Shown piece after piece: positions 974-21,700 of a stretch of DNA of 24,000 nt. The stretch covers positions 21,849-45,848 of the forward strand of contig JAWSUG010000002.1 of assembly GCA_033549385.1 (NCBI GenBank), in the 5' to 3' direction. Under the pieces are notes generated by a model, which did not search any database, was not told the DNA's origin, and worked only from the letters and a program-made list of their open reading frames with translations. The position numbers and the translations under genes were made by a program. Positions within the stretch are counted from its first letter, which is position 1. The number at the start of each line of letters is the position of its first letter. Origin of the DNA: Desulfobulbaceae bacterium. Its GTDB lineage: Bacteria; Desulfobacterota; Desulfobulbia; Desulfobulbales; Desulfobulbaceae.

Positions 974-1783
974 ATGAATAGAAATTTACGACTTGATGAA
1001 CATTGTATCCTCAAAGAACCCTATTATCTGCAGACAGGCGAGGAGTTGACTTTGGCGGAAGCGGCGTACCACACCAGGCTGCCGCTGCTGCTTAAGGGCC
1101 CGACAGGCTGCGGCAAGACGAGATTTATGCAGTACCTTGCCTGGAAACTGAAGCGGCCGCTTATCACTGTTTCCTGTCATGATGATCTGTCAACCTCCGA
1201 CCTGGTCGGGCGCTACCTGATCAGGGCAGGTGAGGCGGTATGGATGGACGGACCCCTGACAATGGCGGTCAGGGCGGGAGCCATCTGTTACCTGGATGAA
1301 ATCGTCGAGGCCCGGAAGGATACAACCGTGGTTATTCACCCCCTGGCGGATGACCGCCGGGAACTGCCTATTGAAAAGAAAGGGGAACTCGTTGTTGCGC
1401 CGCCGGAATTCATGCTGGCTGTTTCCTATAACCCCGGGTACCAGAGTATCCTCAAGGATCTTAAACCATCGACCAGGCAACGTTTTGTAGCCCTCTCCTT
1501 TGATTATCCCGATGCGGAAAATGAAGCAATAATAGTTGCCCGGGAAGGGGAAGTTGCCATTGATCTTGCCCGTTCCCTGGTCAAGCTGGGAGCAATGACC
1601 AGGGAACTCAAGGATTCGGGCCTGCCTGAAGGGGCCAGCACCAGGATTCTTATTCAGGCCGGCAGGCTCACCGGCTGCGGCATCGATATCCAGACCGCCT
1701 GCCATAACGCCATTGCACTGGCATTGACCGATGACAGGGAATTGCTGGAATCAATTGACGAGATGATCAGTTCCATCTTTTGA
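974..1783 (+). CDS. cbbQ: MoxR-class AAA+ ATPase of the CbbQ/NorQ/NirQ type
   Basis: 269 aa. Walker A GPTGCGKT (nt 1097-1120), Walker B ICYLDEIVEA, then SYNPGYQ...L.PSTRQRF, typical of CbbQ/NorQ. SD-like ACGGGGA lies upstream of the ATG. A vWA partner starts 7 nt downstream. Confidence 0.85.
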   Translation: MNRNLRLDEHCILKEPYYLQTGEELTLAEAAYHTRLPLLLKGPTGCGKTRFMQYLAWKLKRPLITVSCHDDLSTSDLVGRYLIRAGEAVWMDGPLTMAVRAGAICYLDEIVEARKDTTVVIHPLADDRRELPIEKKGELVVAPPEFMLAVSYNPGYQSILKDLKPSTRQRFVALSFDYPDAENEAIIVAREGEVAIDLARSLVKLGAMTRELKDSGLPEGASTRILIQAGRLTGCGIDIQTACHNAIALALTDDRELLESIDEMISSIF

Positions 1784-1790
1784 AAACGAT

Positions 1791-4088
1791 ATGAATCTGC
1801 AAACACTGAAAACGGAGTTTCTGTCTCTTGTGGCACCTGATATGCCCAATGAGTGGGATGTTGAAGAGGCGGTCGAAAAACTTGTCCGCCTGGATGAAAC
1901 CAGGCGCCGATCAGTCCTGGGCCAGGTGCAGGTCATCTGGCCCGTGAGTCACTCACTGTGTTTCGATTATCTCAAGATGGCTGCTTCGGCACTTGACTGC
2001 ATTGAACTCAACTCTCTGTCCGAATGGGTCAACAGGACTCTGGACCAGTACGAACAGAATGGTCTGCGGGCGGCCCAGCGATTCATGGCCGACGTGGAAG
2101 AAAATTTCCTCTGCACCCTGCGGGGTGAAACCGGCCTTCGGTTCGGGAAGGCGGAGAGGAGACTGGCTGTCTATCTCAGGGGACTCAGCGGCCGCCCTCT
2201 TGACCTTGTCGCATCCGAAAAGGCCTATACGGACACTGCAACGATATTCGTTCCTGAGGAGATCACCTGGTCCCGCAATGCGGCGGATAATTTTTTCCTG
2301 TATAAACTTATTACCACGTATCAGTGGGCGTTCATTGCCGGATCAACCTTTACCGTGTTCCCCGGGGGTGTGGAAGATTCAGGCGGGGAAGAGGGCGAAC
2401 GGCTGTGGCTGCAGGATTTTTTGCACTCCTTTGCCAATCCGGGCATGGCCGGCGACCTCTATCATTTTCTGGAAACCGTCCGCATCACTGTCTTTCTTGA
2501 AAAAGAATTGCCGGGGCTGATGCGGAGAAAAAAAGAGATACTTCCCCAGGCATTGCTTCCGCAGAGGGAACCAAAGGAAAAAAAAGGTCTTCTCGACCGT
2601 CTGCAGCGCTTATGGCTGGCAGGGTTTCAATCGGATGAGGAACATCCGGACCTTGAGCCATTCGCCGGGCTGATAAACAATCATGAACAGAATGCCGGCA
2701 GCGCCATGGATTCCGTTGCCGCCACCCGGCAATTATATTCACTGTTCAGGGGGGAAGAAAAAACCCACCACCATTCGGCACCTTTTCTGTTTCAGGGAGT
2801 GATGCAGCTCGAGGCAGTCCGCCAGGCCCGCAGGCAGAGAATAGAGGAAGCCAGGCAGTATTTCATCGACGCCCTGGCAACAAGGATTCTCCAGCCGCGC
2901 GGCAGAAAGCAGCAGGAAGGGACGGAAAGTACGGATGGATCCGACAACAGCGATGCAGCGGGTACCGAGGAGCAGGGGATTGCGTTCGTCGTCAATGCAA
3001 AAGGTGAAGAGAACAAGGGGCGGGCGGAAAACACTCTGCTGCTGACGATCAATAATGAAGAGGTTGAACCGGGCAGCGAACTCGAGCAGGCGGCAGCCGA
3101 TGTCGTGCAGGAACTTGGCTATCTCCCCGAGAAGTATGTTTCCAGTGCAGCGGGAAAAGCCGGCAGCGGATATGCTTCCTTCAGCACCCTGGAACCGGAG
3201 ACCGGTCAGGAAATAATTGCGCCGGTGACATATGACGAATGGGACTACAGGCGCGGCGATTTCAGGAAAAACTGGTGCAGCCTGCGGGAAAAGGAAATTC
3301 CCCTCAGCCGCTCGAATTTTCTCGAGGAAACCCTGGATAAATACCACGGCCGGATTATCCGCCTCCGCTACCAGTTCGAGATGATGCGCAACCAAGAACG
3401 TTTTGTCCGCCGCCAGCGTGACGGCGAGGATATCGACCTGGATGCGGTGATCGAGTCCATGGCCGACAGCCGTGCCGGTCTGCCCCCTTCGGATCGGTTA
3501 TTCATCCGCCTCAGGAGGGATGAGCGGGATATTGCCGTCCTGTTTCTGGTCGATATGTCCAATTCAACACAGGGATGGGTGGGCAAGGTTATCAAGGAAT
3601 CACTGGTCCTCCTGTGCGAGGCGCTGGAGGTGGTCGGCGACCGGTATGCCATTTACGGATTTTCCGGTATGCGGCGGCTGCGCAGTGAATTTTTTCATAT
3701 CAAACACATGGATGAAATGTATGACGATTCGGTCAAGGAGCGGATCGGCAGCATCGCACCCCGTGAATACACCCGCATGGGGCCTGCCATCCGCCATGCC
3801 GCGTCCCTTCTTAAGGATATTGATTCCCGGATCAAGCTGCTGATCACCCTCTCGGACGGCAAACCGGAGGATTACGATGATTACAAGGGGGAATACGCCA
3901 TAGAAGATACCCGCCATGCTCTTGTCGAGGCAAAACTGGCGGATATCCATCCTTTCTGCATTACCATTGACCGGCAGGCGCGTGATTACATCGAGCATAT
4001 GTATGGTAACGTGAATTATATCCAGATCGATGATGCCGGCAAACTTCCCTTGAAAATGCCGGAGATATACCGGATATTGACCCGTTGA
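1791..4088 (+). CDS. cbbO: CbbO/NorD-type von Willebrand factor A (vWA) domain protein, partner of the preceding AAA+ ATPase
   Basis: 765 aa. The C-terminal vWA domain has the MIDAS motif DMSNS (nt 3552-3566, VLFLVDMSNSTQGW) and a downstream TLSDGKPEDYD. A long helical N-terminal region and an acidic low-complexity linker (GRKQQEGTESTDGSDNSDAAGTEEQG) precede it. Only 7 nt separate it from the cbbQ stop. Confidence 0.8.
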   Translation: MNLQTLKTEFLSLVAPDMPNEWDVEEAVEKLVRLDETRRRSVLGQVQVIWPVSHSLCFDYLKMAASALDCIELNSLSEWVNRTLDQYEQNGLRAAQRFMADVEENFLCTLRGETGLRFGKAERRLAVYLRGLSGRPLDLVASEKAYTDTATIFVPEEITWSRNAADNFFLYKLITTYQWAFIAGSTFTVFPGGVEDSGGEEGERLWLQDFLHSFANPGMAGDLYHFLETVRITVFLEKELPGLMRRKKEILPQALLPQREPKEKKGLLDRLQRLWLAGFQSDEEHPDLEPFAGLINNHEQNAGSAMDSVAATRQLYSLFRGEEKTHHHSAPFLFQGVMQLEAVRQARRQRIEEARQYFIDALATRILQPRGRKQQEGTESTDGSDNSDAAGTEEQGIAFVVNAKGEENKGRAENTLLLTINNEEVEPGSELEQAAADVVQELGYLPEKYVSSAAGKAGSGYASFSTLEPETGQEIIAPVTYDEWDYRRGDFRKNWCSLREKEIPLSRSNFLEETLDKYHGRIIRLRYQFEMMRNQERFVRRQRDGEDIDLDAVIESMADSRAGLPPSDRLFIRLRRDERDIAVLFLVDMSNSTQGWVGKVIKESLVLLCEALEVVGDRYAIYGFSGMRRLRSEFFHIKHMDEMYDDSVKERIGSIAPREYTRMGPAIRHAASLLKDIDSRIKLLITLSDGKPEDYDDYKGEYAIEDTRHALVEAKLADIHPFCITIDRQARDYIEHMYGNVNYIQIDDAGKLPLKMPEIYRILTR

Positions 4089-4912: not shown

Positions 4913-5725
4913 ATGAAAAAAAGCGAGTACCTGATGGAGAATGATGACGAGTCATTCCGTCTCGAGATAAAAATTGACGAAAAAAGTATCAAAAGACAGG
5001 CTGAGTGGGCCGGTATCAAACCTGGGATGAGGGTTGCCGATTTGGGGTGCGGTTCGGGAAAGACAACTTCAATCCTGCACGAACTGGTGCAGCCGGATGG
5101 CAGTGTTGTCGGTGTCGACGGGTCAAGTGAGCGCCTCGCTTATGCCCGTAAAAAATACGGTGGAAACGGCATAGAATATATTGCAGGCAACCTGAACGAG
5201 CCCCTTGATCATCATGGAAGCTTTGATTTTATATGGTGCCGGTTTGTACTTGAATATGCCCGGGCCGGAAGTTTCAATATGGTCCGGAATTTTACCGCAA
5301 GTTTAAAACCGGGTGGTATTCTCTGTTTGGTAGATCTCGACCATAATCCCCTTAATCATTACGGCGCTTCCGAGCATCTTGAAAGAACGTTTTCGAAAAT
5401 TATGCAGGAACTGGAAGAAAAATTTGATTTTGATCCGTATATCGGCAGAAAGCTGTACTCTTTTCTCTACGACCTGGGGTACCAGGATATTGATGTCTGC
5501 GTTGAAAACAACAGGGTCACTTTCGGCAGGATTGATCCGGTGGAAGTATATAATATTATGAAAAAAATTGAAATCGTCCCTAAAAAGATCAATTTTCGTT
5601 TCGAGGAATTTCCAGGCGGATATGAAGAATTTTATCGCGAGGCTGTGGATTTTTTTTTACATCCACGGAGGTTTTCCTATACGCCGCTTATCCTGTGCAG
5701 AGGGAAGAAGCCCCTGGAAGGTTAG
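4913..5725 (+). CDS. Class I SAM-dependent methyltransferase
   Basis: 270 aa. Motif I VADLGCGSGKTT, post-I acidic VGVDGS, and later LKPGGILCLVD. No substrate-specific features recognised. Confidence 0.8.
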   Translation: MKKSEYLMENDDESFRLEIKIDEKSIKRQAEWAGIKPGMRVADLGCGSGKTTSILHELVQPDGSVVGVDGSSERLAYARKKYGGNGIEYIAGNLNEPLDHHGSFDFIWCRFVLEYARAGSFNMVRNFTASLKPGGILCLVDLDHNPLNHYGASEHLERTFSKIMQELEEKFDFDPYIGRKLYSFLYDLGYQDIDVCVENNRVTFGRIDPVEVYNIMKKIEIVPKKINFRFEEFPGGYEEFYREAVDFFLHPRRFSYTPLILCRGKKPLEG

Positions 5726-6430
5726 TCGTGGCTGTCCAATAACCCGCTGAAAGCTCTGAAAATATCATCCGGCCGCAGCTGCTCCTGCAGGGATTTGTTC
5801 GCCAGATAGTGCCGTTTCCTGAAAAATTCTTTTCTCTTCATTGGAGACATTTGTGGTAGACAGTCAAGACTGTCTTCCCGGTAAATAGGACCGGAATTTT
5901 CCAGTTCAAACAAATCCCTGCCAACCAGTTTTTTCTCCTCTTTAAAATTCATTGTCCGGTGGGACCATTGATTCAGATATCCCTTCAATCCGAATTTCCG
6001 GCGCATTTCATGTTCATAGATCGTGACAGCGGGGTAAGGAAATATGCCTGTGAACGGATATCGGCAACAAGATCACGCAGTGCCTGTTTGAAAAAAATAA
6101 TAGTAGAAATGACGACCGCTTTTGGATTTTTGCCGAGCAGGTTGGAAAAATAATCTTTTTCGTTGCGGTAATTATGGATCAGTTCAACCCTAAAATTTTT
6201 CCGGGAGAGTAAACTGTAGAGATATATGTCGTTGAGTTTGGGAGCGGAGGAGTAGCTGAATTGCTCGTCGCCCGATATCGGATCAACAATCCGGCCATTA
6301 TTTTGATAAAATCGGATATGACCTGTATGGCACCAACCCGCTCGTCAACATTGAGTTTAAGCGGGTTGGTGCCGGATAGAGTGTTTAACGCCGGAGTCGG
6401 CAATAATTATGACGTCAAGTTCAGGCCGTC
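5722..6430 (-). pseudogene. Decayed, frameshifted gene remnant, possibly from a B12-binding-domain radical SAM family gene
   Basis: Protein-like minus-strand reading is split over three frames. These read RPELDVIIIADSGV...*; ...LNVDERVGAIQVISDF...*; and DPISGDEQFSYSSAPKLNDIYLYSLLSRKNFRVELIHNYRNEKDYFSNLLGKNPKAVVISTIIFFKQALRDLVADIR...*. The last stretch, YPFTGIFPYPAVTIYEHEMRRKFGL..., continues into the only ATG-started ORF (5722-6006). There is no start codon or SD for the upstream pieces and no CxxxCxxC core. The family guess rests on PYPxT-type and Rossmann-like patterns only. Confidence 0.35.
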
Positions 6431-6438
6431 TGCCCCTG

Positions 6439-7737
6439 CTAGAATGTATAGGCCGCTGATACAGCAAACAGATGACTGGAGATATCCGAAAACTCGCCGT
6501 TTATCGTGTCGTTCACCACAGTGCGGTCATCTTTGTCGGCATAGAGGTATGCTGCGCCAAAGGACCAATTTGACGTACAGGAATACCTGAAACCGACGGA
6601 GCCGAACCAGGCATCCGAATCAGGCAGGTCAAAAGACAGGGTTGCTTCGGGTACCGGATTCCCGTCGATACCGACGCCGGCCATCAATGTAAGTGCCTCA
6701 CTCCAGTAGTATGAGATGCCGAGTCTGAAGGCATCGACATCATCCCAGTCTTTTAGAACCGGGTCATCAAAGGCTGCGATCAGCACCGGATGCCTCAGGT
6801 TCCGGTCATAATTTATATCGATTTCCTCATAATCCGACCAGAATGTCCGGTCATAAACAAACTCCACCGTTGCTTTTGAAAACGTGTATGAAGCGGCCAG
6901 GGCAAGCACCGCAGGAACAGGAATCGAAACTGAACCGCCGCCTCGATAAATTGTTTCCGGCATGAGGTGATTCGGGAAGCTTTCAGATGCCCTCAGGTTT
7001 CCATCTCCTTCCATATCAAGGTCGACTTTGGATCGATAGGTGGCGGCAAGACTGATTTTCTCGTCCGGCCTGAAAGAGAGAGCCAGATTATAGCCGAATT
7101 CCGTGGCGTCACCTTCCAGATCACGGGAGATGAAAAGCAATTCATCGTCCGGCGGCATGCCACCGCCAAGGCCGCCTGCTGGTATTGCCGTCACCATTCC
7201 CAGGCTTTTAACAGTCGCATCACTGTAAAGAAGCCTGACACCCGCGGCGGCTGAAAACTTTGATCCGAATCTGTAGGAAACAGTGGGATTGGCTTCAAAA
7301 ACGGTCATGCTGAATTCTTCGGCAAAGGTCCTGGGAAAGGGATCCTGCCATCGTTTTGCCAGCCCGGCCGGAAAAACCACAGCAAATCCAAATCTGAAGT
7401 TGTTGTAATCCGGAGAGACAACATGAAGATTGGGAACAATGAAATTTTCATCATCTGATTCACCATTGAACAGTGGTGTCCGGTTGTCGATATAGGTTAT
7501 GCTTGGCAGCCGAATATAGGTCAGCCCTCCTTCAATGGCTGTGGCATCGGGCATCCAGGACATGTTTGCCGGATTAAAATAGGCAGCGTCCGCATGCAGA
7601 GCGTTTGCAATGTATGCACTGCCCAAAGCCGTTGAATTAAGCGACTGCTCCGGAATTCGATACCCGGATGCAAAAGCCGAGGAAGCGAGAAACATTACCC
7701 CAATGATAGCAATGGGCACACTTCTTTTATGCATCAT
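6439..7737 (-). CDS. Outer-membrane hydrophobic-compound transport channel, OMPP1/FadL/TodX family
   Basis: 432 aa. Signal peptide MMHKRSVPIAIIGVMFLASSAFA. N-terminal hatch-like SGYRIPEQSLNSTALGSAYIA..DA.A.YFNPA. Alternating beta-strand pattern throughout and a C-terminal aromatic residue (..AAYTF). SD AAGGGGGG lies upstream. Confidence 0.85.
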   Translation of the reverse strand: MMHKRSVPIAIIGVMFLASSAFASGYRIPEQSLNSTALGSAYIANALHADAAYFNPANMSWMPDATAIEGGLTYIRLPSITYIDNRTPLFNGESDDENFIVPNLHVVSPDYNNFRFGFAVVFPAGLAKRWQDPFPRTFAEEFSMTVFEANPTVSYRFGSKFSAAAGVRLLYSDATVKSLGMVTAIPAGGLGGGMPPDDELLFISRDLEGDATEFGYNLALSFRPDEKISLAATYRSKVDLDMEGDGNLRASESFPNHLMPETIYRGGGSVSIPVPAVLALAASYTFSKATVEFVYDRTFWSDYEEIDINYDRNLRHPVLIAAFDDPVLKDWDDVDAFRLGISYYWSEALTLMAGVGIDGNPVPEATLSFDLPDSDAWFGSVGFRYSCTSNWSFGAAYLYADKDDRTVVNDTINGEFSDISSHLFAVSAAYTF

Positions 7738-7758
7738 TTTTCTTTAACCCCCCTTGAG

Positions 7759-10299
7759 TTAGTTATCTTCTGATACTGTTACTCTCCGAGTGCGAGTAAC
7801 AGGGTTATCCAAAATCTGCCTGATCCTGTTAGCCAACGATACCGGCAACAGAGGTTTGTTGACCAGAACATATGAATCCAGATCACCCAGATGGGCAATG
7901 ACATTATCGGTATAGCCGGACATGAGTATAGCCTTTAGATCAGGCTGTTTTTCTTTTAATTTATCCAGCAGTTCTTTCCCATCCATCCCTGGCATGATAA
8001 CATCGCTGAGCACCATATCAATTTTGCCCTTCACATCCCCATAGATTTTCAGCGCTTCTATTCCATCGGAGGCTTCGAGTAATGTATACCCGAGGGGCTT
8101 CAGAGTCTCCAGTATCAGGCTGCGGATTGATTCATCATCATCAACCACCAGAATTGTTTCCGTTCCTCTGGCCATCACCAGGTTATCATTCATTTCCTGC
8201 TCTGAAAGTTCCCCGCCCGTAATCGGAAAATATATTTTGAAGCTGGTCCCATGTCCCTCTTCACTGTATACATGAATGTGACCGTGATGCTGTTTGACTA
8301 TGCCGTAAACTGTGGCAAGACCAAGTCCGGTACCCTTGCCCACTTCCTTGGTGGTAAAAAAAGGTTCAAATATTTTTTCCCGCACTTCAGGAGCCATTCC
8401 AATGCCGGTATCGGTGACGCTCAGCATTGAATATAGACCGGGTGTCACGTCACTGCGTGTATTGGCATATTTTTCATCCAGAAAAATATCACCGGTTTCA
8501 ATGGTTAACCTGCCGCCGTTCGGCATAGCGTCTCTGGCATTGACCACAAGGTTCATCAGAATTTGACCTATCTGGCTGGGATCAGCAGATATATTACCGA
8601 CAGCATTGGATAAATAAGTCTTTATGATGATGTTTTCATCAATCAACCTGGAAAGCATCTTGTTCATGTCTTCCACTATGAGGTTCAGGTTGGTTACTTT
8701 CATTTCCAGAACCTGCTTGCGGCTGAAGGCAAGAAGCTGCTGGGTAAGGGCGGATGCCTTAATCCCGGCATGATGGATGCTGTCAACCATTTTCCAGATC
8801 GGGTCGTCCTGGGGAATCTGCAGGGAAAGTATCTGGCTGTATCCCAGAATGGTGGTCAGGATATTGTTGAAATCATGTGCAACTCCGCCGGCAAGATTAC
8901 CGACGGCTTCCATTTTCTGAATCTGACGGAGATGAGATTCGAGATTAATGTTATGTAGCCGAGAACCTATTTGCGATGCAACGCCCATGAGCAAATTCAT
9001 GTCCCTCTGGAGTAAAGGTCTCTTGCTTACAATATTATCGACAGCGAGTATGCCCAGAGGTTCGTTTTCATATAAAATCGGGCAGCAGATCAGTGATTTG
9101 ACCCCCATCCTTAGGGCAAACTCATAGCTGCGTTCGGAGAGATCATTTTTAAGATCTTTAATATTATTAAGAAGAATAGGTTTCTTGTTCTGAAATGAGA
9201 GATAGAAAATTCCTTTGGAATCTTGATTGTCGAGGTGAAAAGACAGATTTTCCAAGATTTCTTTTTGGGATTCCTCATATCCATAACCGGCCTGAAAATT
9301 AAGACTTGTTTTATCCTGATTTGCCAGCATGATCAGTATACGGTCATAATCAAGACGCTTATGCAATATTCGGATTATTTCATTAAACAAATCTTCAATT
9401 TCATATTGTTTTGCCAGAGTTTGACCAATCTCATTGATGAGTAAAGAATTTACATAGTTTATATCTATTTGCTCAATAAGTTCATCTGAAGAATTCCTTA
9501 AGAGATCAATGGTATCTAATAAATTTTTCGTTTCAATATTTTTTAGGAACCAGTTTGTGATCAATATTATTGTTACTGTAATTAAAGACAGAGAAACAAT
9601 AGTCATTAAAGATAAATAATTGTGGTAAAAATAATTCACTGGTAGAAAAAAAATGACCAACAAACCAAACAGTGCAACAGTTAAATTCCTTAAATTTTTC
9701 AAAACAGTAACAGGTGACTTTGGCCAGGAAACCAGATACCGGCAGACTTTGTCCCCTTTAAAGATGCATTCAGGGTGGCTTATTTCAGAAGGTTTAAGTT
9801 TAAAATAGGTTGACATTGCCTCCCAGTAACCCATTCTGTTTTCACATTGAAAGGACTCTTCTCTGGTCCCGGGATTTGGGGTAACTGTAATTTCAACTTT
9901 ATTAGAACTTAAAACTTTTGCTTCATAATAAGACGACTTGGAAATTTTATTTACATAATAACCCATTAAATTATAAAATTTAACGGGACTCATTAATCCA
10001 ATCGTGAATCTTCCAAATATGTTATATGCTTCAGGCGATGAGGAAAAACGCCCTGCTTCGCGGGCAATTTTTTGATTGCTTGTTAATTCTACCAACTTTT
10101 CATAAAAGCGATTTATTTGTCTTTGGGAGAAAAAATGACCTTCATCTTCCACCTGATAAGGTTCCATTTCTGCATAAGCAAGTAGTTCATCAATGTTGAT
10201 ATAATTGTACTTTTTTTTAATTAACTTCAGGTACAAATCAATCCCCCTGCTTCCGTACAGAGGTCTATTTTCATCGTAAAGATCAGGCATTGAAAACAA
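7759..10299 (-). CDS. Hybrid sensor histidine kinase/response regulator: V4R-like N-terminal domain - 2 TM - GAF - HisKA - HATPase_c - REC
   Basis: 846 aa. H-box [17 protein letters not shown] (His475, codon 8877-8875). N box [11 protein letters not shown] boxes DTGIGM and GKGTGLGL. The receiver has ILVVDDDES...[14 protein letters not shown] (Asp766, codon 8004-8002) and a KP motif. Two hydrophobic helices lie at aa ~205-250, and a GAF-like region at aa ~295-447. The N-terminal ~190 aa end in [14 protein letters not shown]...[18 protein letters not shown]. The track start is TTG 10299, abutting the upstream stop; the first ATG is at 10290. Confidence 0.9.
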
Positions 10300-12387
10300 T
10301 TATTTAACTTGTTTTATTTTAATCTGTTTTTTTGGTAATGTAAGGGATTCCATGTACTTAAGATACTCGCCAATGTACTCAAGATTGAGTATTCCTAATA
10401 AGTACGTTTTTTCAGAAGAAAAATCATACAGCTCGGCATAAGATTTCGGATAAAATAATACAGGGATGTTATCATACTCATAGTACTCTGCAAGTTGAAC
10501 AAGTGCATAATTCAGGATCTCTTTGTTGATAGTGGGGGGATCTAACACAAAAATTTGAATACAATTTGTCAGGTTTGACATATTAATTCCAAAATCTGAA
10601 ATGTTCACAATCAGAACAGCAACTAATTCATCGTCTGTTTTGATTGAAAACAGCTTCCGTTTTCTTTTAAAACCTGCTTTGCTGTAATCATCACAGATAG
10701 TGCCTCCCATGCAATTTGCTTCCGGGGTGAGATCAAGAGCTTTGATCAACAAGCCCCCTGAGAACTCATCATACCAATATTTAAGAATTTCAAGATCATC
10801 TGGATCTGTATCACTTATGTTCAATGCGGAGAAGGGAGGTGCTGGTTTTCCATTCGGTTGAAAATGAAAATATGCAAATTCATCAATTGAACTTTTTTGT
10901 GAGTCCCCCATGGAACCAGTCGCGGATGAACCGAAAAGTCTTTTTGAAAAGCGGTTATTGGGCCTGTAATAACCAGCAAGAAAATCCATTTTAGCAGGCG
11001 GCAAAGAATGAAGCTCGTTAATATGTTGGAGTATGTGCTCCAGTACAACTAATCCAGCCTTATGTTTTGTCGATTTAATTGCTGCAAGATGATGCAAAAG
11101 CCATGTTTTTTCATAAAATCTGTATATGGATATATGGCCATATATTTTCCCTTTGTCCTGGTAAATGATATGTTGTGCTATCTCAGGTTTTTCGTTGTAT
11201 AATTTTTTGTATGTATCAATAAATATTTCTTTTTGGTCAGCTATTTGTAGATATTTTTCAGGGTAGACAAACCCTGAATCGAAAAAGAAATCCCATAGAG
11301 AATCAAGATCAACATTTGAAGTGCAGATGCATGAGTGCTTGTTTTTTGCCTGATGTATCAGTGAAGATAATTTTATATGATCAGAAAGATTTATATCCAA
11401 TATAACAAAACCGCATGTAACCACATCATCTTGGGTAATACGGTATAAGACTTGAGCTTTGCACTTTAAGGTAAAGCCTTGAATAAAATCGATTCCCAGG
11501 TCAGTTATTATCAATCCAGGTAACAGGACCGAATTTTCTGCATCTTCTTCTATGGAAAAACCGAGTCCTGATATATCTTTCAAACCCAGTATTATTTTTT
11601 TTTGTGTTAAGGGATGATGAAATATCAAATTAGGTAAGGGAGACAGTACCAGTCTTTCTGTTCGAAATGTTTTCGACTTCATCCTGCTGATGTTGTTTTT
11701 TACATTTTTTAAAACAAGTGTTATTCCCGACGTATATTTTTCCTGGCGTATAATTGCGCACTCACCAAAAAAAACGAAATCTCCTTTATTGTTAATTAAT
11801 TGAACATTGACGTGATTGTCGGGATTCATTTCAAGTTGCAGTTGCTGAGAATCTAAAGCATATTTTACAGTAAAGGATTCAGCACAGAAATTTATTAAAG
11901 TACCCTTAACAAGATATCCATCCTGGCTTATTTGAGCGGTAATACCATTACATAAGTATCTTTTAAATCCTCTGAATGTTCTTTCATAGCAGTATTCCGG
12001 TAGTCCCAAGTAAACGCCTTTCCTGGATATTTCAAGGAGCTTCGCTTCCACACAAACATTGCTGAGTCCGTCGGTGAAAGAAAAATAGGTAAATGTAAAT
12101 TGCTTGAGTTTTTTTTCTGCGTCGAAATGCTCAGACCATATGCACAGCAAAAAGTTGTCATTGCATATCTGGGGTTTGGCCAACAGTGTAATAGGATGAC
12201 CGTACTTCTTGTGTTTGAAGTTAAGGGTAATGTCACCGTCTTTGAAATTGATCCGGTTCAAATAGTTGACCAATCGTGCTTGAGTGACTTTTTTGCTGTT
12301 CTTATCATTCTCTAAGGAAGCAGTCTCCTCAGTAAGATGGAGTGAAGATTTAAGCCCTGCACCTTTCATTTCGTCAGCCTCTTGCAC
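10300..12387 (-). CDS. Uncharacterised 695-aa protein with two PilZ-like beta-barrel modules and a ~340-aa unassigned C-terminal module
   Basis: Long uninterrupted ORF in an AT-rich tract. Module 1 (aa ~133-228) has R139GFKR143 (RxxxR), then N166FCAES where D/NxSxxG is expected. Module 2 (aa ~238-346) has R242TER245, then a perfect D271ISGLG276 (nt 11577-11560). The C-terminal part (LWDFFFDSGFVYPEKY...HHLAAIKSTKHKAGLVVLEHIL...) is unassigned. The track start is GTG 12387. ATG 12369, preceded by AAGAGG at 8-nt spacing, is the more likely start. Confidence 0.75.
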   Translation of the reverse strand: MQEADEMKGAGLKSSLHLTEETASLENDKNSKKVTQARLVNYLNRINFKDGDITLNFKHKKYGHPITLLAKPQICNDNFLLCIWSEHFDAEKKLKQFTFTYFSFTDGLSNVCVEAKLLEISRKGVYLGLPEYCYERTFRGFKRYLCNGITAQISQDGYLVKGTLINFCAESFTVKYALDSQQLQLEMNPDNHVNVQLINNKGDFVFFGECAIIRQEKYTSGITLVLKNVKNNISRMKSKTFRTERLVLSPLPNLIFHHPLTQKKIILGLKDISGLGFSIEEDAENSVLLPGLIITDLGIDFIQGFTLKCKAQVLYRITQDDVVTCGFVILDINLSDHIKLSSLIHQAKNKHSCICTSNVDLDSLWDFFFDSGFVYPEKYLQIADQKEIFIDTYKKLYNEKPEIAQHIIYQDKGKIYGHISIYRFYEKTWLLHHLAAIKSTKHKAGLVVLEHILQHINELHSLPPAKMDFLAGYYRPNNRFSKRLFGSSATGSMGDSQKSSIDEFAYFHFQPNGKPAPPFSALNISDTDPDDLEILKYWYDEFSGGLLIKALDLTPEANCMGGTICDDYSKAGFKRKRKLFSIKTDDELVAVLIVNISDFGINMSNLTNCIQIFVLDPPTINKEILNYALVQLAEYYEYDNIPVLFYPKSYAELYDFSSEKTYLLGILNLEYIGEYLKYMESLTLPKKQIKIKQVK

Positions 12388-12725
12388 TTTTTAGTGCAGC
12401 ATCATTTTTGATAGAAATAAAAAATCTTTTTGATTTCAGTATTATTTCAAGATCATACTTTATGCAAACTAAGCATTAGGGGGATTTTTTTAATAAAGTA
12501 TCTGAAATTATTTATACTTACATCTTATTAAGAACATTGCAAAATATCAAATTAAAAAAGAAATAAAAAACGTTTGATCTGTGTAAATTCAATGACTTGT
12601 TAACTTTTTGCGCATTGTAAAAAATTAACAAATTATATAACTTGAAAGGGTGTGGAAAGGAACAGGACTCTGTTGGATTTTACATCAATATTACAAAGGG
12701 ATATCAACACTCTCCGGAAAAGTAA

Positions 12726-12754
12726 AAGATAAAACTTATTATGACTTTTATCTT
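12726..12754 (-). terminator. AT-rich hairpin downstream of mobB (weak intrinsic terminator candidate)
   Basis: Perfect 9-bp inverted repeat AAGATAAAA (12726-12734) / TTTTATCTT (12746-12754) with an 11-nt loop, 14 nt after the mobB stop. On the minus strand it is followed by TTACTTTTCC. Confidence 0.35.
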
Positions 12755-12767
12755 AACATTGCAGATT

Positions 12768-19891: not shown

Positions 19892-20710
19892 ATGGGAAAA
19901 GTACGGATAATGGGGATACTGAACATCACTCCCGATTCATTCTCGGACGGCGGGCAGCTGGGCAACAGGGATGAGATTGTCCGCCGGATTGAAGAAATGG
20001 TGGAAGCCGGAGTGGATATTTTTGATGTCGGCGGCGAGTCGACCCGGCCGTTTGCGGATCCTGTTCCTGAACAGGAAGAACTGGACCGGGTTCTGCCGGT
20101 TATAGAACGCATCCGGCAGGTATCGGAGAAGCCGATTTCAATAGATACCACCAAGGCTGCCGTAGCCGCGGCGGCGCTCGCCGCCGGTGCTGAGATTGTT
20201 AACGATATCAGCGCATTGCAGCAGGATCCCGGCATGCTGGAGGTGGTAAAAGAGGTTCCCGGGCAGGTGATTATCATGCACATGCAGGGCACTCCCGGAA
20301 ACATGCAGGTCAATCCGCAGTATGATGATGTAGTCGCCGACATCTTCCATTTTTTTGAAGAAAGAATAGAGCTGCTCACAGCCCGGGGCATAGACAAGGC
20401 CCGGATTATCATTGATCCGGGAATCGGGTTCGGCAAGACGGTGGAGCACAACCTGAAGATTCTCCGGAATATCGGCGAGTTCAAAAAGCTGGAGTGCCCC
20501 GTGCTTATCGGTCATTCCAGAAAATCCTTTCTCGGCAGCACTCTTGGTCTTGACATCACCCGGCGCGACTGTGCCACGGCAATCCTTTCCTTTTATTGTA
20601 TCCGGCAGGGCGCGGATATCCTGCGCGTTCATGATGCGGAACTGACCAGACAGGCGGTCCGGCTGCAGCAACTCCTGGAGGCCGGAGAAGATGATCAACC
20701 TTCCTGTTGA
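19892..20710 (+). CDS. folP: Dihydropteroate synthase
   Basis: 272 aa. MGILNITPDSFSDGG, DVGGESTRP, IDPGIGFGKT and GHSRKSF are canonical pterin-binding/DHPS motifs. Confidence 0.95.
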   Translation: MGKVRIMGILNITPDSFSDGGQLGNRDEIVRRIEEMVEAGVDIFDVGGESTRPFADPVPEQEELDRVLPVIERIRQVSEKPISIDTTKAAVAAAALAAGAEIVNDISALQQDPGMLEVVKEVPGQVIIMHMQGTPGNMQVNPQYDDVVADIFHFFEERIELLTARGIDKARIIIDPGIGFGKTVEHNLKILRNIGEFKKLECPVLIGHSRKSFLGSTLGLDITRRDCATAILSFYCIRQGADILRVHDAELTRQAVRLQQLLEAGEDDQPSC

Positions 20711-20719
20711 GCAGGGCTT

Positions 20720-21700
20720 GTGACTTTCCAGGGGATTATTCAGACCGGCCAGCATAGCTGTTTCAATGAAGATGGTGCCGTTGTCGACTGTGCAGGCAGC
20801 GGCCAGGACGGCGAGTACCAAATTGGAACGCCCTGGCCTGATCCGAGGTTCAGGCTCCGGGGCCAGGTCGTGGAGGACCTGCTCACCGGGCTTTGCTGGG
20901 CAACGGATGCAAATCCTGCCGAATTTCCCCTGACCTGGCAGGAGGCCTTTGAATTTATCCGCGCAATGAACGCCCGGTCCGCATCCGGTTACAGCGACTG
21001 GCGCCTGCCTGACAGAAATGAATTGCGCAGCCTGATCTCCTACCAGGCAAAAAGGCCGGCCCTGCCGGCAGGACATCCTTTTGTCAATGTATTTTCAGGA
21101 TGGTACTGGACGTCCACCACGGCTGCCGTCAATTCCGGGTATGCCTGGTATGTTCATATGGACGGAGCCCGAATGTTTTACGGCGGCAAGAATCAATATT
21201 ACATGCTCTGGCCCGTGCGGGGAAAAAGCACTGTTCTGCCTCCGGCCGGAGAGGCCGCCGGATCCCCTGTTGAGGAACGGCAGGAAAGCGTTCCGGAAAA
21301 AAAAGAGCCTGAATCGCGGTTCGTGCCCGATGGGGATATTGTCCATGACCGGCACACAGGCCTGTGCTGGCGGCAGACGGCAAGCCTGTCATCAAAACCG
21401 GTACGGTGGGCGGAAGCCCTGCAGCTGGTTGCAGGGTTGAACCAGGCTGAGAGCGATCGGAAAAAGGGCTGGCGGCTGCCGAATATCAATGAACTGGAAT
21501 CACTGGTGGACTGCTCCAGGCATTCGCCGGCACTTGAAGTCAATCATCCCTTTACGGAAGTCAGGGATGTGTACTGGTCTTCGACCACCAGTTTTTTTGA
21601 AACCGACTGGGCCTGGGCTCTTTATCTCAACAAGGGAGCCCTTGGCGTTGGATTCAAGAAACAGGCGGAATTTTATATCTGGCCCGTGCGGAACGGATAG
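20720..21700 (+). CDS. DUF1566 (Lcl C-terminal-like) domain protein with two repeats
   Basis: 326 aa with a GTG start. The N-terminal TGQ..C....G..V.C.GSGQDGEYQ.G.PWPDPRF is followed by two units containing V.D.LTGLCW / V.D..TGLCW, then SDWRLPDRNELRSL / KGWRLPNINELESL, then YWSSTT. There is an in-frame stop 9 nt upstream, so no longer N-terminus is possible. Confidence 0.8.
   Translation: MTFQGIIQTGQHSCFNEDGAVVDCAGSGQDGEYQIGTPWPDPRFRLRGQVVEDLLTGLCWATDANPAEFPLTWQEAFEFIRAMNARSASGYSDWRLPDRNELRSLISYQAKRPALPAGHPFVNVFSGWYWTSTTAAVNSGYAWYVHMDGARMFYGGKNQYYMLWPVRGKSTVLPPAGEAAGSPVEERQESVPEKKEPESRFVPDGDIVHDRHTGLCWRQTASLSSKPVRWAEALQLVAGLNQAESDRKKGWRLPNINELESLVDCSRHSPALEVNHPFTEVRDVYWSSTTSFFETDWAWALYLNKGALGVGFKKQAEFYIWPVRNG

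Follow-up and report, generated by a model that had tools for sequence, protein, structure and literature searches.

To our knowledge, the enzymes controlled by PilZ domains are few, namely the cellulose and alginate synthases and PixB, and none of them has a known acyl substrate. HfsK of Caulobacter, a GNAT-family enzyme that lacks a PilZ domain, is reportedly also an effector of cyclic diguanylate (c-di-GMP). PixB of Myxococcus xanthus (MXAN_2604) has a PilZ-PilZ-GNAT architecture, binds c-di-GMP in vitro, and has an essential acetyltransferase domain whose substrate is unknown (PMC8316039). Here, we analyse a 24,000-nucleotide (nt) stretch of contig JAWSUG010000002.1 from a Desulfobulbaceae bacterium (hereafter, the window) that encodes a protein of 695 amino acids (aa) with a PilZ-type front end fused to a predicted tandem-GNAT fold. 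Its gene is the first of three tightly packed genes, the other two coding for a hybrid sensor histidine kinase and a FadL/TodX outer-membrane channel (Table 1). We put at roughly 0.55 the probability that this locus is the Desulfobulbaceae version of a four-part, sensor-controlled, and c-di-GMP-linked module for acylation and methylation, in which the output domain of the sensor has been swapped. The module is widespread and uncharacterised, and literature searches on PilZ with tandem GNAT, and on H-NOX with HD-GYP and GAF, returned no description of it. PilZ-effector enzymes and sensors of the H-NOX superfamily are known kinds of protein; the Desulfobulbaceae lineage carries a variant of the module with an unusual kinase output.

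PixB is the closest characterised analogue of the 695-aa protein. We compared the two by the published description of PixB, and the likeness is one of architecture. In both proteins, PilZ-type domains lie N-terminal to a GNAT-fold transferase, an arginine motif is kept, and the second motif deviates. PixB has a single GNAT domain that Pfam recognises, whereas the tandem GNAT of the 695-aa protein is invisible to Pfam. The arginine motifs are ~210 residues apart in PixB (R121 and R331) and ~100 in the 695-aa protein (R139-R143 and R242-R245). The conserved partners of the 695-aa family, an H-NOX-like sensor and a methyltransferase, also set it apart from PixB, which is reportedly conserved only in close Myxococcus relatives (PMC8316039), whereas the 695-aa family occurs across several phyla. 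Going by its modelled folds, the family would be a second and far more widespread PilZ-acyltransferase, and its association with a sensor, a methyltransferase, and a porin narrows the search for substrate and signal. A second group of comparable systems comprises the receptors that combine PilZN and PilZ domains (YcgR, PlzD, MrkH, MotI, and PlzA), with which the protein shares a predicted two-barrel arrangement, an arginine-rich linker between the barrels, and a DxSxxG motif in the second one. YcgR-type receptors are stand-alone proteins of ~230 aa that act on flagellar motors or DNA. In the 695-aa protein, by contrast, the two-barrel module is joined to an enzyme fold of 340 aa, an additional domain lies at the N-terminus, and the linker reads K-x-x-R-S-x-R instead of RxxxR.

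The sensor has its own described counterparts. In Shewanella and Vibrio, an H-NOX protein acts through a histidine kinase on c-di-GMP phosphodiesterases that include an HD-GYP protein (H-NOX/HnoK/HnoB/HnoD; PMC8846402). The window resembles this network in having an H-NOX-fold sensor, a kinase, and the same zinc Cys-His-Cys-Cys quartet. However, nitric oxide (NO) is sensed in Shewanella and Vibrio by a stand-alone, soluble H-NOX protein with heme, whereas the domain of the window shares one polypeptide with a membrane hairpin, GAF, and an output, has neither the proximal His nor the YxSxR motif, and is paired with a putative PilZ-acyltransferase. The V4R domains of XylR, DmpR, and PoxR belong to the same superfamily and bind hydrophobic aromatic effectors. 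Their Cys/(Glu or His)/Cys/Cys zinc site is spaced like the predicted one of the window's sensor. The sensor differs from these regulators in that its fold match to DmpR is weak compared with H-NOX, it has no Pfam match to V4R or XylR_N, and its output is a kinase or, in orthologues, an HD-GYP domain and not a sigma-54 activator.

Channels of the TodX/TbuX/FadL family are encoded beside a two-component sensor in the case of TodS-TodT, as in the window. In contrast to that system, the window holds no catabolic genes, its sensor has an architecture unrelated to TodS, and the porin is facultative among related loci. Lastly, the orthologous sensors of other genomes end, like the GAF-HD-GYP phosphodiesterases (PmGH family; bioRxiv 10.1101/2021.11.05.467447), in a GAF and an intact HD-GYP domain, from which the window's kinase differs by having wholly lost HD-GYP. 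A term search of the accessible text of that HD-GYP survey finds no mention of an architecture with an H-NOX-like N-terminus and a hairpin.

Table 1. Coordinates of the features of the locus, given as positions in the window.
Feature	Position	Strand	Basis or remark
PilZ-type/tandem-GNAT open reading frame (ORF), 695 aa	10300-12387	minus	GTG start; soluble
N-terminal alpha/beta barrel-like domain, aa 30-128 (predicted)	12004-12300	minus	AlphaFold2 (AF2) secondary structure; invariant N44, F48, W84
First PilZ-like beta-barrel, aa 130-235 (predicted)	11683-12000	minus	R139xxxR143 and (D/N)166-F-(S/N/C)-A-x-S171
PilZ domain, aa 237-346	11350-11679	minus	K239-x-x-R242-S-x-R245 linker and D271-I-S273-G-x-G276
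Tandem-GNAT (acyl-CoA N-acyltransferase-like; CoA, coenzyme A) fold, aa 355-690 (predicted)	10318-11325	minus	Foldseek
Hybrid sensor histidine kinase, 846 aa	7759-10299	minus	TTG start
H-NOX/V4R-superfamily sensor domain, aa 10-195, cytoplasmic (predicted)	9715-10272	minus	AF2 and Foldseek; C152/H175/C178/C186
Membrane hairpin anchor, hydrophobic segments aa ~206-225 and 229-252, loop of ~3 residues	9544-9684	minus	Kyte-Doolittle
GAF domain, aa 300-447	8959-9402	minus	Pfam 4.2e-14; kept in all partner sensors
HisKA-HATPase-REC transmitter	7822-8901	minus	H475, D766, K815
Spacer of 21 nt before the porin gene	7738-7758	minus	Shine-Dalgarno AAGGGGGG
FadL/TodX outer-membrane channel, 432 aa	6439-7737	minus	ATG start
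AT-rich intergenic region, 380 nt, ~25-30% GC	12388-12767	minus	5' of the 695-aa gene
Class I S-adenosylmethionine (SAM)-dependent methyltransferase, 270 aa	4913-5725	plus	Convergent to the putative operon; Pfam methyltransferase domains

A sensor and a methyltransferase accompany the 695-aa family across phyla

We sampled 80 loci that encode members of the 695-aa family, with up to 10 kb of flanking sequence, and searched all their ORFs with the proteins of the window. Adjacency of the sensor was counted over the 74 loci whose downstream sequence reaches 700 nt or more, and the presence of the methyltransferase and of FadL over the 44 loci with enough flank. The loci belong to Desulfobulbales, Desulfobacterales, Geobacterales (including cultured Geomonas), Syntrophobacter, Nitrospirota, Planctomycetota (Brocadia), Rokubacteria, and Hippea; because cultured Geomonas species carry the module, it is open to experimental study. 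A sensor with an H-NOX-like domain, transmembrane segments, and a GAF domain lies directly downstream of the 695-family gene in 44 of the 74 loci, and within 6 kb of it in 7 more. The gap between the two genes is mostly -45 to +60 nt, and complete sensors match that of the window with E-values of 1e-56 to 1e-115 (weaker where contig ends cut them). An earlier reading of the window, made from the sequence alone, had asked whether the synteny of the three genes is conserved, and the N-terminus of the same sensor does adjoin the 695-family gene in these 44 of the 74 informative loci, which cover several phyla.

The conserved module has a fourth member that the sequence-only reading did not include. 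This is the SAM-dependent methyltransferase encoded convergently to the putative operon, which accompanies the 695-aa family more constantly than the porin or any other partner does: it is found in 43 of the 44 loci with enough flank and in 63 of all 80, its gene lies on the opposite strand in 61, and E-values to the protein of the window are 1e-35 to 1e-133. Its nearest solved structures (3mgg, juvenile hormone acid methyltransferase, and phosphoethanolamine methyltransferases) are of the small-molecule type. FadL occurs within 8 kb in 16 of the 44 loci, and any other neighbour family in at most 16 of the 80. The porin of the window is a full-length member of the FadL/TodX family, as had been proposed (Pfam Toluene_X, PF03349, E 1.7e-51, residues 15-432 aligned to positions 2-421 of the 421 in the profile), and its N-terminus, MMHKRSVPIAIIGVMFLASSAFASG, reads as a signal peptide. 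It also matches the NCBIfam FadL model (E 3.6e-30), with 105 bits against an equivalog cut-off of 585, and hence is not the E. coli-type FadL itself.

Two kinds of loci depart from the common arrangement. Desulfosarcina-type loci (L010, L017, L018, L037, L043, and similar ones) encode a 716-aa version of the protein, lack an adjacent sensor, and have the methyltransferase gene directly downstream; genes for an M48 peptidase (in 16 loci) and for an AsmA-family protein (in 13) lie in their flanks. One contig labelled as a Thermoplasmatales archaeon (L021, LSSG01000083.1) carries a bacterial-type module of PilZ/GNAT, sensor, and methyltransferase, and is probably mis-binned.

The output domain of the sensor was exchanged in a subclade of Desulfobulbaceae

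Most partner sensors of other genomes are ~640-680 aa long and end in an HD-GYP domain (Pfam HD_5, E 3e-41) with intact HD, HHE, and GYP motifs. Judged by these motifs, the HD-GYP domain of the orthologous sensors supplies the c-di-GMP enzyme that the sequence-only reading had found missing. In the kinase of the window, Pfam finds no HD-GYP domain; it finds HisKA (E 9.4e-8), HATPase_c (E 3.5e-23), and Response_reg (E 5.1e-17) after the GAF domain, in agreement with the GAF-containing hybrid histidine kinase first read from the sequence. H475 lies within an AHDFNN motif, and the receiver (REC) carries D720/D721, D766, and K815. A HisKA-HATPase-REC transmitter that comes straight after GAF is found only in the window and in the Desulfobulbaceae subclade nearest to it (L002-L005). 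HD-GYP was replaced by HisKA-HATPase-REC just after GAF in this subclade, so that a phosphorelay would receive the input that otherwise goes to HD-GYP. The exchange, made at a fixed junction, offers a natural experiment on the rewiring of one sensor between second-messenger and phosphorelay signalling.

Other variants exist. Some Desulfobacterales have a version with PAS, histidine kinase (HK), and REC domains (PAS-HK-REC) that is encoded 1-2.3 kb away. In Geobacterales, several sensors are ~760-790 aa long (L050, L054, L056, L057, L065, L067-L069, L075, L078, and L079); Pfam was run on that of L050 and places a canonical PilZ domain after its HD-GYP. If the other long sensors resemble it, the Geobacterales modules contain two PilZ-bearing proteins.

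The base composition of the genes points to the same junction. The G+C content at third codon positions (GC3) is 0.34 in the PilZ/GNAT gene and 0.33 in the input half of the sensor, 0.50 in its HK-REC half, 0.52 in the FadL gene, 0.48 in the methyltransferase gene, and 0.61-0.64 in housekeeping genes. The resulting sharp trough (8944-12387) spans the PilZ/GNAT gene together with the input half of the kinase, and GC3 rises within the kinase gene at codons ~350-450, near the GAF/HisKA junction, which fits a replacement of the output domain by recombination. Similar troughs are present in several other lineages (L001, L002, L035, L036, L050, and L079). In the L002-L005 subclade, a whole block is syntenic with the window (FdhD-MobB-PilZ/GNAT-kinase-FadL-methyltransferase-TrxC-VWA-AAA), and the PilZ/GNAT gene is its most divergent member, with 47-65% identity vs 54-82% for its neighbours. 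This recurrence and this divergence make the trough a property of these genes, and the synteny of the whole block in related Desulfobulbaceae indicates that the module was inherited vertically. The same synteny rules out that the trough marks a recent genomic island.

The 695-aa protein combines PilZ-type barrels with a predicted tandem-GNAT fold

Scans of the full 695-aa protein with Pfam and NCBIfam gave nothing significant, and for the identities of its domains we therefore rely on a predicted structure and on fold searches. We built an AF2 model on 37 relatives, with a mean predicted local distance difference test score (pLDDT) of 83, and Foldseek searches against the PDB split it into two halves. 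The N-terminal half matches the two-barrel c-di-GMP receptors PlzA (7mie), PP4397 (3kyf), MotI (5vx6), MrkH (5kec), VCA0042 (1yln and 2rde), and YcgR (5y6f), with a probability of 1.0, E-values of 3e-7 to 4e-6, and ~210-227 alignment columns. According to the model, the front end thus has a YcgR-like arrangement of beta-barrels. There is no hydrophobic segment in the protein. The family includes 115 close database clusters, all of ~690 aa, and its relatives are found in the genomes of at least 577 species. A few members reach 980-1250 aa by a large N-terminal extension (L042:8246-12007; P0169, P0192, and P0205).

Sequence profiles locate the PilZ domain within this front end. The six relatives that were scanned singly with Pfam PilZ (PF07238) all score 25-31 bits, above the gathering cut-off of 22.5, and always at aa ~245-350; the match reaches an E-value of 0.01 or better in 23 of the 37 relatives (best 8.9e-10). 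The copy of the window scores 12.5 bits (E 0.19), or 15.5 bits (E 0.022) when its N-terminal half is scanned alone, and Pfam PilZ does not recognise the first barrel (aa 130-235). The sequence-only reading had described a tandem PilZ protein. Its PilZ-type front end stands, and since the match always falls at one place, the tandem becomes one recognised PilZ domain after PilZ-like barrels, the barrel directly upstream being PilZ-like or PilZN-like.

The motif residues of both barrels are strongly conserved among the 115 members. The first barrel keeps R139 in 113 of them and R143 in 114, and its second motif is degenerate, (D/N)-F-(S/N/C)-A-x-S. The barrel recognised by Pfam is preceded by arginines in RxxR spacing (R242-S-x-R245) and not in the canonical RxxxR one; here, R242 is kept in 112 members, R245 in 114, D271 in 109, S273 in 113, and G276 in 113. 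The window copy reads D271-I-S273-G-L-G276 and keeps every one of these motif residues, which suggests that c-di-GMP still matters to it.

The C-terminal half matches tandem GNAT structures over ~290-370 columns in two lobes: VipF (6wqb, E 1.5e-9), glucosamine N-acetyltransferase (5kf1, E 3.4e-8), a tandem GNAT of the clavulanate pathway (2wpw, E 1.2e-6), and N-myristoyltransferase (3iu2, E 1.7e-6). None of the 37 relatives has a Pfam acetyltransferase match, NCBIfam gives no GNAT match, and a profile of the 37 relatives matches no PDB sequence at E-values up to 10. Used as a query, this half retrieves 804 clusters at 50% identity, nearly all of ~680-720 aa. The first lobe carries the motif H433-x-A-A-(6)-K443-A-G445-L, with G445 kept in 114 of 115 members, and an invariant set made up of H418, Y425, W429, H433, A435, G445, Y473, R475, N478, S500, D502, and Y506. 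Its K-A-G445 loop falls at the beta4-alpha3 position, a placement made from predicted secondary structure alone; the second lobe has no glycine-containing CoA loop. This half would then be an acyltransferase, as far as its modelled fold indicates. The sequence-only reading had named the PilZ-like protein as the best candidate for an output or partner of the kinase. Since half of the protein is predicted to adopt the tandem-GNAT fold, this partner would be an enzyme and not a plain adaptor.

The input domain of the sensor is predicted to be H-NOX-like and heme-less

We modelled the N-terminal ~200 residues of the sensor with AF2 on 31 relatives (pLDDT 92). The top 42 Foldseek matches of this model are all H-NOX domains, either bacterial or from soluble guanylate cyclase, with E-values down to 2.6e-7; stand-alone bacterial H-NOX domains align with template modelling (TM) scores of 0.57-0.75 over ~185-199 columns. 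These matches are followed by TRAPP Bet3 and then by DmpR (6iy8, E 1.6e-3, TM 0.41). Profile comparisons also point to H-NOX, with an hhalign match to the helical subdomain of the T. tengcongensis protein (E 8.5e-5) and a hidden Markov model match to the C-terminal part of the S. oneidensis protein (4u9b, E 0.1) that places H175/C178/C186 on H161/C164/C172. Together with C152, these residues are invariant among the relatives of the sensor, and they are spaced like the zinc quartet that a subset of H-NOX proteins has. The domain thus keeps a Cys-His-Cys-Cys quartet that is predicted to bind zinc.

The hallmarks of heme binding were not found. The window's protein has no His within aa 94-131, and none occurs in the family consensus of that helix, which two anchored alignments (to the S. 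oneidensis and T. tengcongensis H-NOX) suggest to be the equivalent of the proximal-His helix. The YxSxR motif that binds the heme propionates is absent; the segment before C152 reads G-V-x-E147-K-P-x-Q-C, with an invariant Glu147. Because both features are missing, we class the domain with the H-NOX/V4R superfamily, but as a member without heme. Such a fold, serving as input to HD-GYP enzymes and to kinases, would extend this superfamily to a new sensing role.

The V4R-like domain that the sequence-only reading had assigned thus holds only at the level of the superfamily: the closest folds are those of H-NOX, the DmpR match is weak, and a Pfam scan of the N-terminal 200 residues finds neither HNOB (PF07700) nor, even at an E-value of 10, V4R (PF02830). 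One database relative bears the source name '4-vinyl reductase'. Matches to Arabinose_bd (E 0.008 to 0.001) are weak and were set aside, the fold search being clear for H-NOX. Both this domain and the GAF domain are placed in the cytoplasm, because the two hydrophobic segments between them form a membrane hairpin.

A c-di-GMP-linked module and its alternatives

In the reading that we favour, a soluble enzyme would join a YcgR-like PilZ front end to a tandem-GNAT acyltransferase. A sensor held in the inner membrane by its two-helix hairpin would expose a heme-less, zinc-containing ligand-binding domain of H-NOX/V4R type, followed by GAF. A SAM methyltransferase of the small-molecule type would be the third part, and a FadL-type outer-membrane channel, found in about one third of the genomes, the fourth. 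The presumed direction of regulation is that, in most lineages, the HD-GYP sensor would lower c-di-GMP, perhaps locally, and thereby switch the PilZ-gated acyltransferase. In the lineage of the window, where a hybrid kinase replaces the HD-GYP end, the signal would pass through a phosphorelay, maybe to a distant REC-containing c-di-GMP enzyme, or through direct contact between sensor and acyltransferase. The ligand of the sensor is probably a hydrophobic small molecule, which would suit the known ligands of the H-NOX/V4R/Bet3 fold, the tethering of the sensor to the membrane, and the frequency of FadL as a partner. It may enter through the porin and be the signal, as the sequence-only reading had proposed. 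This compound is probably also the one on which the porin and the methyltransferase act, and the methyltransferase would work in the same pathway as the acyltransferase.

This could be taken further, tentatively and with odds that we hold to be against it. Hundreds of anaerobic and sediment bacteria might share an unrecognised c-di-GMP-gated pathway for making or altering a hydrophobic small molecule, which the tandem-GNAT enzyme would acylate, the methyltransferase methylate, and FadL carry across the outer membrane. A new class of heme-less H-NOX-like ligand sensors might then read this same compound and feed back on c-di-GMP, with a phosphorelay taking its place in Desulfobulbaceae.

Several observations weigh against a c-di-GMP-linked acylation module. 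An adjacent sensor is missing from ~25 of the 80 loci, and the porin from most. The window copy itself scores under the Pfam PilZ threshold, and its predicted binding of c-di-GMP is not assured, because the recognised barrel follows an RxxR linker and the barrel with RxxxR has a degenerate second motif. Searches by sequence link the C-terminal half to no GNAT family and to no solved structure, and its catalytic residues are not assignable. In Desulfobulbaceae, the module lacks a c-di-GMP enzyme, and no Hpt protein or response regulator was found in the scanned ORFs of the window. The sequence-only reading had likewise reported no DNA-binding response regulator, Hpt protein, or GGDEF/EAL enzyme, which agrees with our scans of 15 of the 17 large ORFs (those at 19892-20710 and 20720-21700 lie outside the scans; the 122-aa ORF at 428-796 was scanned against NCBIfam alone, which leaves room for a small Hpt).

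The main rival would have the barrels dock the acyltransferase on the H-NOX-like, transmembrane, and GAF part of the sensor and not bind c-di-GMP, so that regulation would go by direct protein contact and the output domain would serve a separate pathway. We consider it unlikely, although it accounts for a sensor whose input half is constant and whose output half is interchangeable (HD-GYP, HD-GYP-PilZ, HK-REC, or PAS-HK-REC). It also agrees with the non-canonical motifs of both barrels, with the low Pfam score of the window copy, and with the HK-REC lineages whose module lacks a c-di-GMP enzyme. However, R139, R143, R242, R245, D271, S273, and G276 are each kept by no fewer than 109 of the 115 members, which would be difficult to account for if no ligand were bound, and the usual partner is a catalytically intact HD-GYP protein, sometimes with a canonical PilZ domain of its own. 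Moreover, PixB binds c-di-GMP though the conserved Ser is absent from both of its PilZ domains (PMC8316039).

A c-di-GMP-linked module need not be an acylating one. If the tandem-GNAT half were a non-catalytic scaffold, the 695-aa protein would be a c-di-GMP-dependent adaptor or regulator, as the sequence-only reading assumed. The lack of a match to any GNAT sequence family and the missing CoA loop of the second lobe would fit this, and one dead lobe is generally known to be common in tandem GNATs (MshD-type). Yet the first lobe is dense in invariant residues and has its K-A-G loop where GNATs bind pyrophosphate, and the architecture of ~690 aa is maintained across hundreds of clusters; we hold a scaffold to be somewhat less probable than docking.

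Far less credible is a kinase that senses NO or O2 through a heme-bound H-NOX domain, in the manner of H-NOX/HnoK, beside a porin unrelated to sensing: heme H-NOX domains do fill the best structural matches, the zinc quartet is that of NO-sensing H-NOX, and H-NOX proteins control kinases and c-di-GMP enzymes (PMC8846402), but we ruled out heme-based gas sensing on the missing His and YxSxR motif, and Pfam HNOB does not match. Equally implausible is that the three genes are adjacent by chance or for transcriptional economy without sharing a function: the porin is missing from about two thirds of the related loci and the sensor from about one third, but a rare H-NOX-like sensor recurs directly downstream in Desulfobacterota, Nitrospirota, Planctomycetota, and others, 36% of loci have FadL within 8 kb, against a chance level that we roughly guess, without computing it, at a percent or so, and the 80 loci already cover several phyla.

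Gene starts, junctions, and other genes of the window

The three ORFs of the minus strand are real genes, the 695-aa ORF because it has more than 100 full-length homologues, and the kinase and porin ORFs because they have strong Pfam matches. All features that had been noted for this packed arrangement were found where they had been reported. The TAA of the 695-aa ORF (10302-10300) directly abuts the TTG at 10299-10297, with an ATG at 10290; the TAA of the kinase gene (7761-7759) is separated from the ATG of the porin gene (7737) by the spacer that carries the Shine-Dalgarno sequence. Neither junction has a terminator-like hairpin. The region contains 8 terminator-like sites, all within coding sequence, and their number is not above the shuffled expectation of 5.8 ± 2.4.

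Two of the starts may lie further downstream than the longest frames suggest. In the NCBI record of a Desulfobulbaceae metagenome-assembled genome, the 695-aa gene starts at the ATG at 12369, with AAGAGG upstream, and this start, which gives 689 aa, is more likely. The kinase may start at the ATG at 10290 instead of the abutting TTG. Judging by its composition and place, the AT-rich region upstream of the 695-aa gene is the probable promoter and leader of the putative operon. It has two weak sigma-70-like matches on the minus strand (12550-12522 and 12468-12441), which are not above chance. An Rfam scan of the whole window, leader included, gave no match, and a riboswitch or other RNA element in the leader was ruled out on this ground.

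The remaining genes of the window that were scanned have housekeeping roles, among them MobB, FdhD, MTHFR, Der, TrxC, and a MoxR-like ATPase. An anti-phage defence system was ruled out, since PADLOC matched nothing save a generic methyltransferase domain. On the plus strand (974-4088), the gene for a MoxR/GvpN-like AAA ATPase (269 aa) precedes one for a protein of 765 aa whose C-terminal part weakly matches VWA, and the same pair lies beside the module in L004. Between the porin and methyltransferase genes, two overlapping frames of the minus strand (5988-6344 and 5725-6072) match one B12-binding radical-SAM protein of 528 aa (L007, 14762-16348) and also match L009. Judged from these frames, the segment 5725-6344 looks like the remnant of a frameshifted and truncated B12-binding radical-SAM gene.

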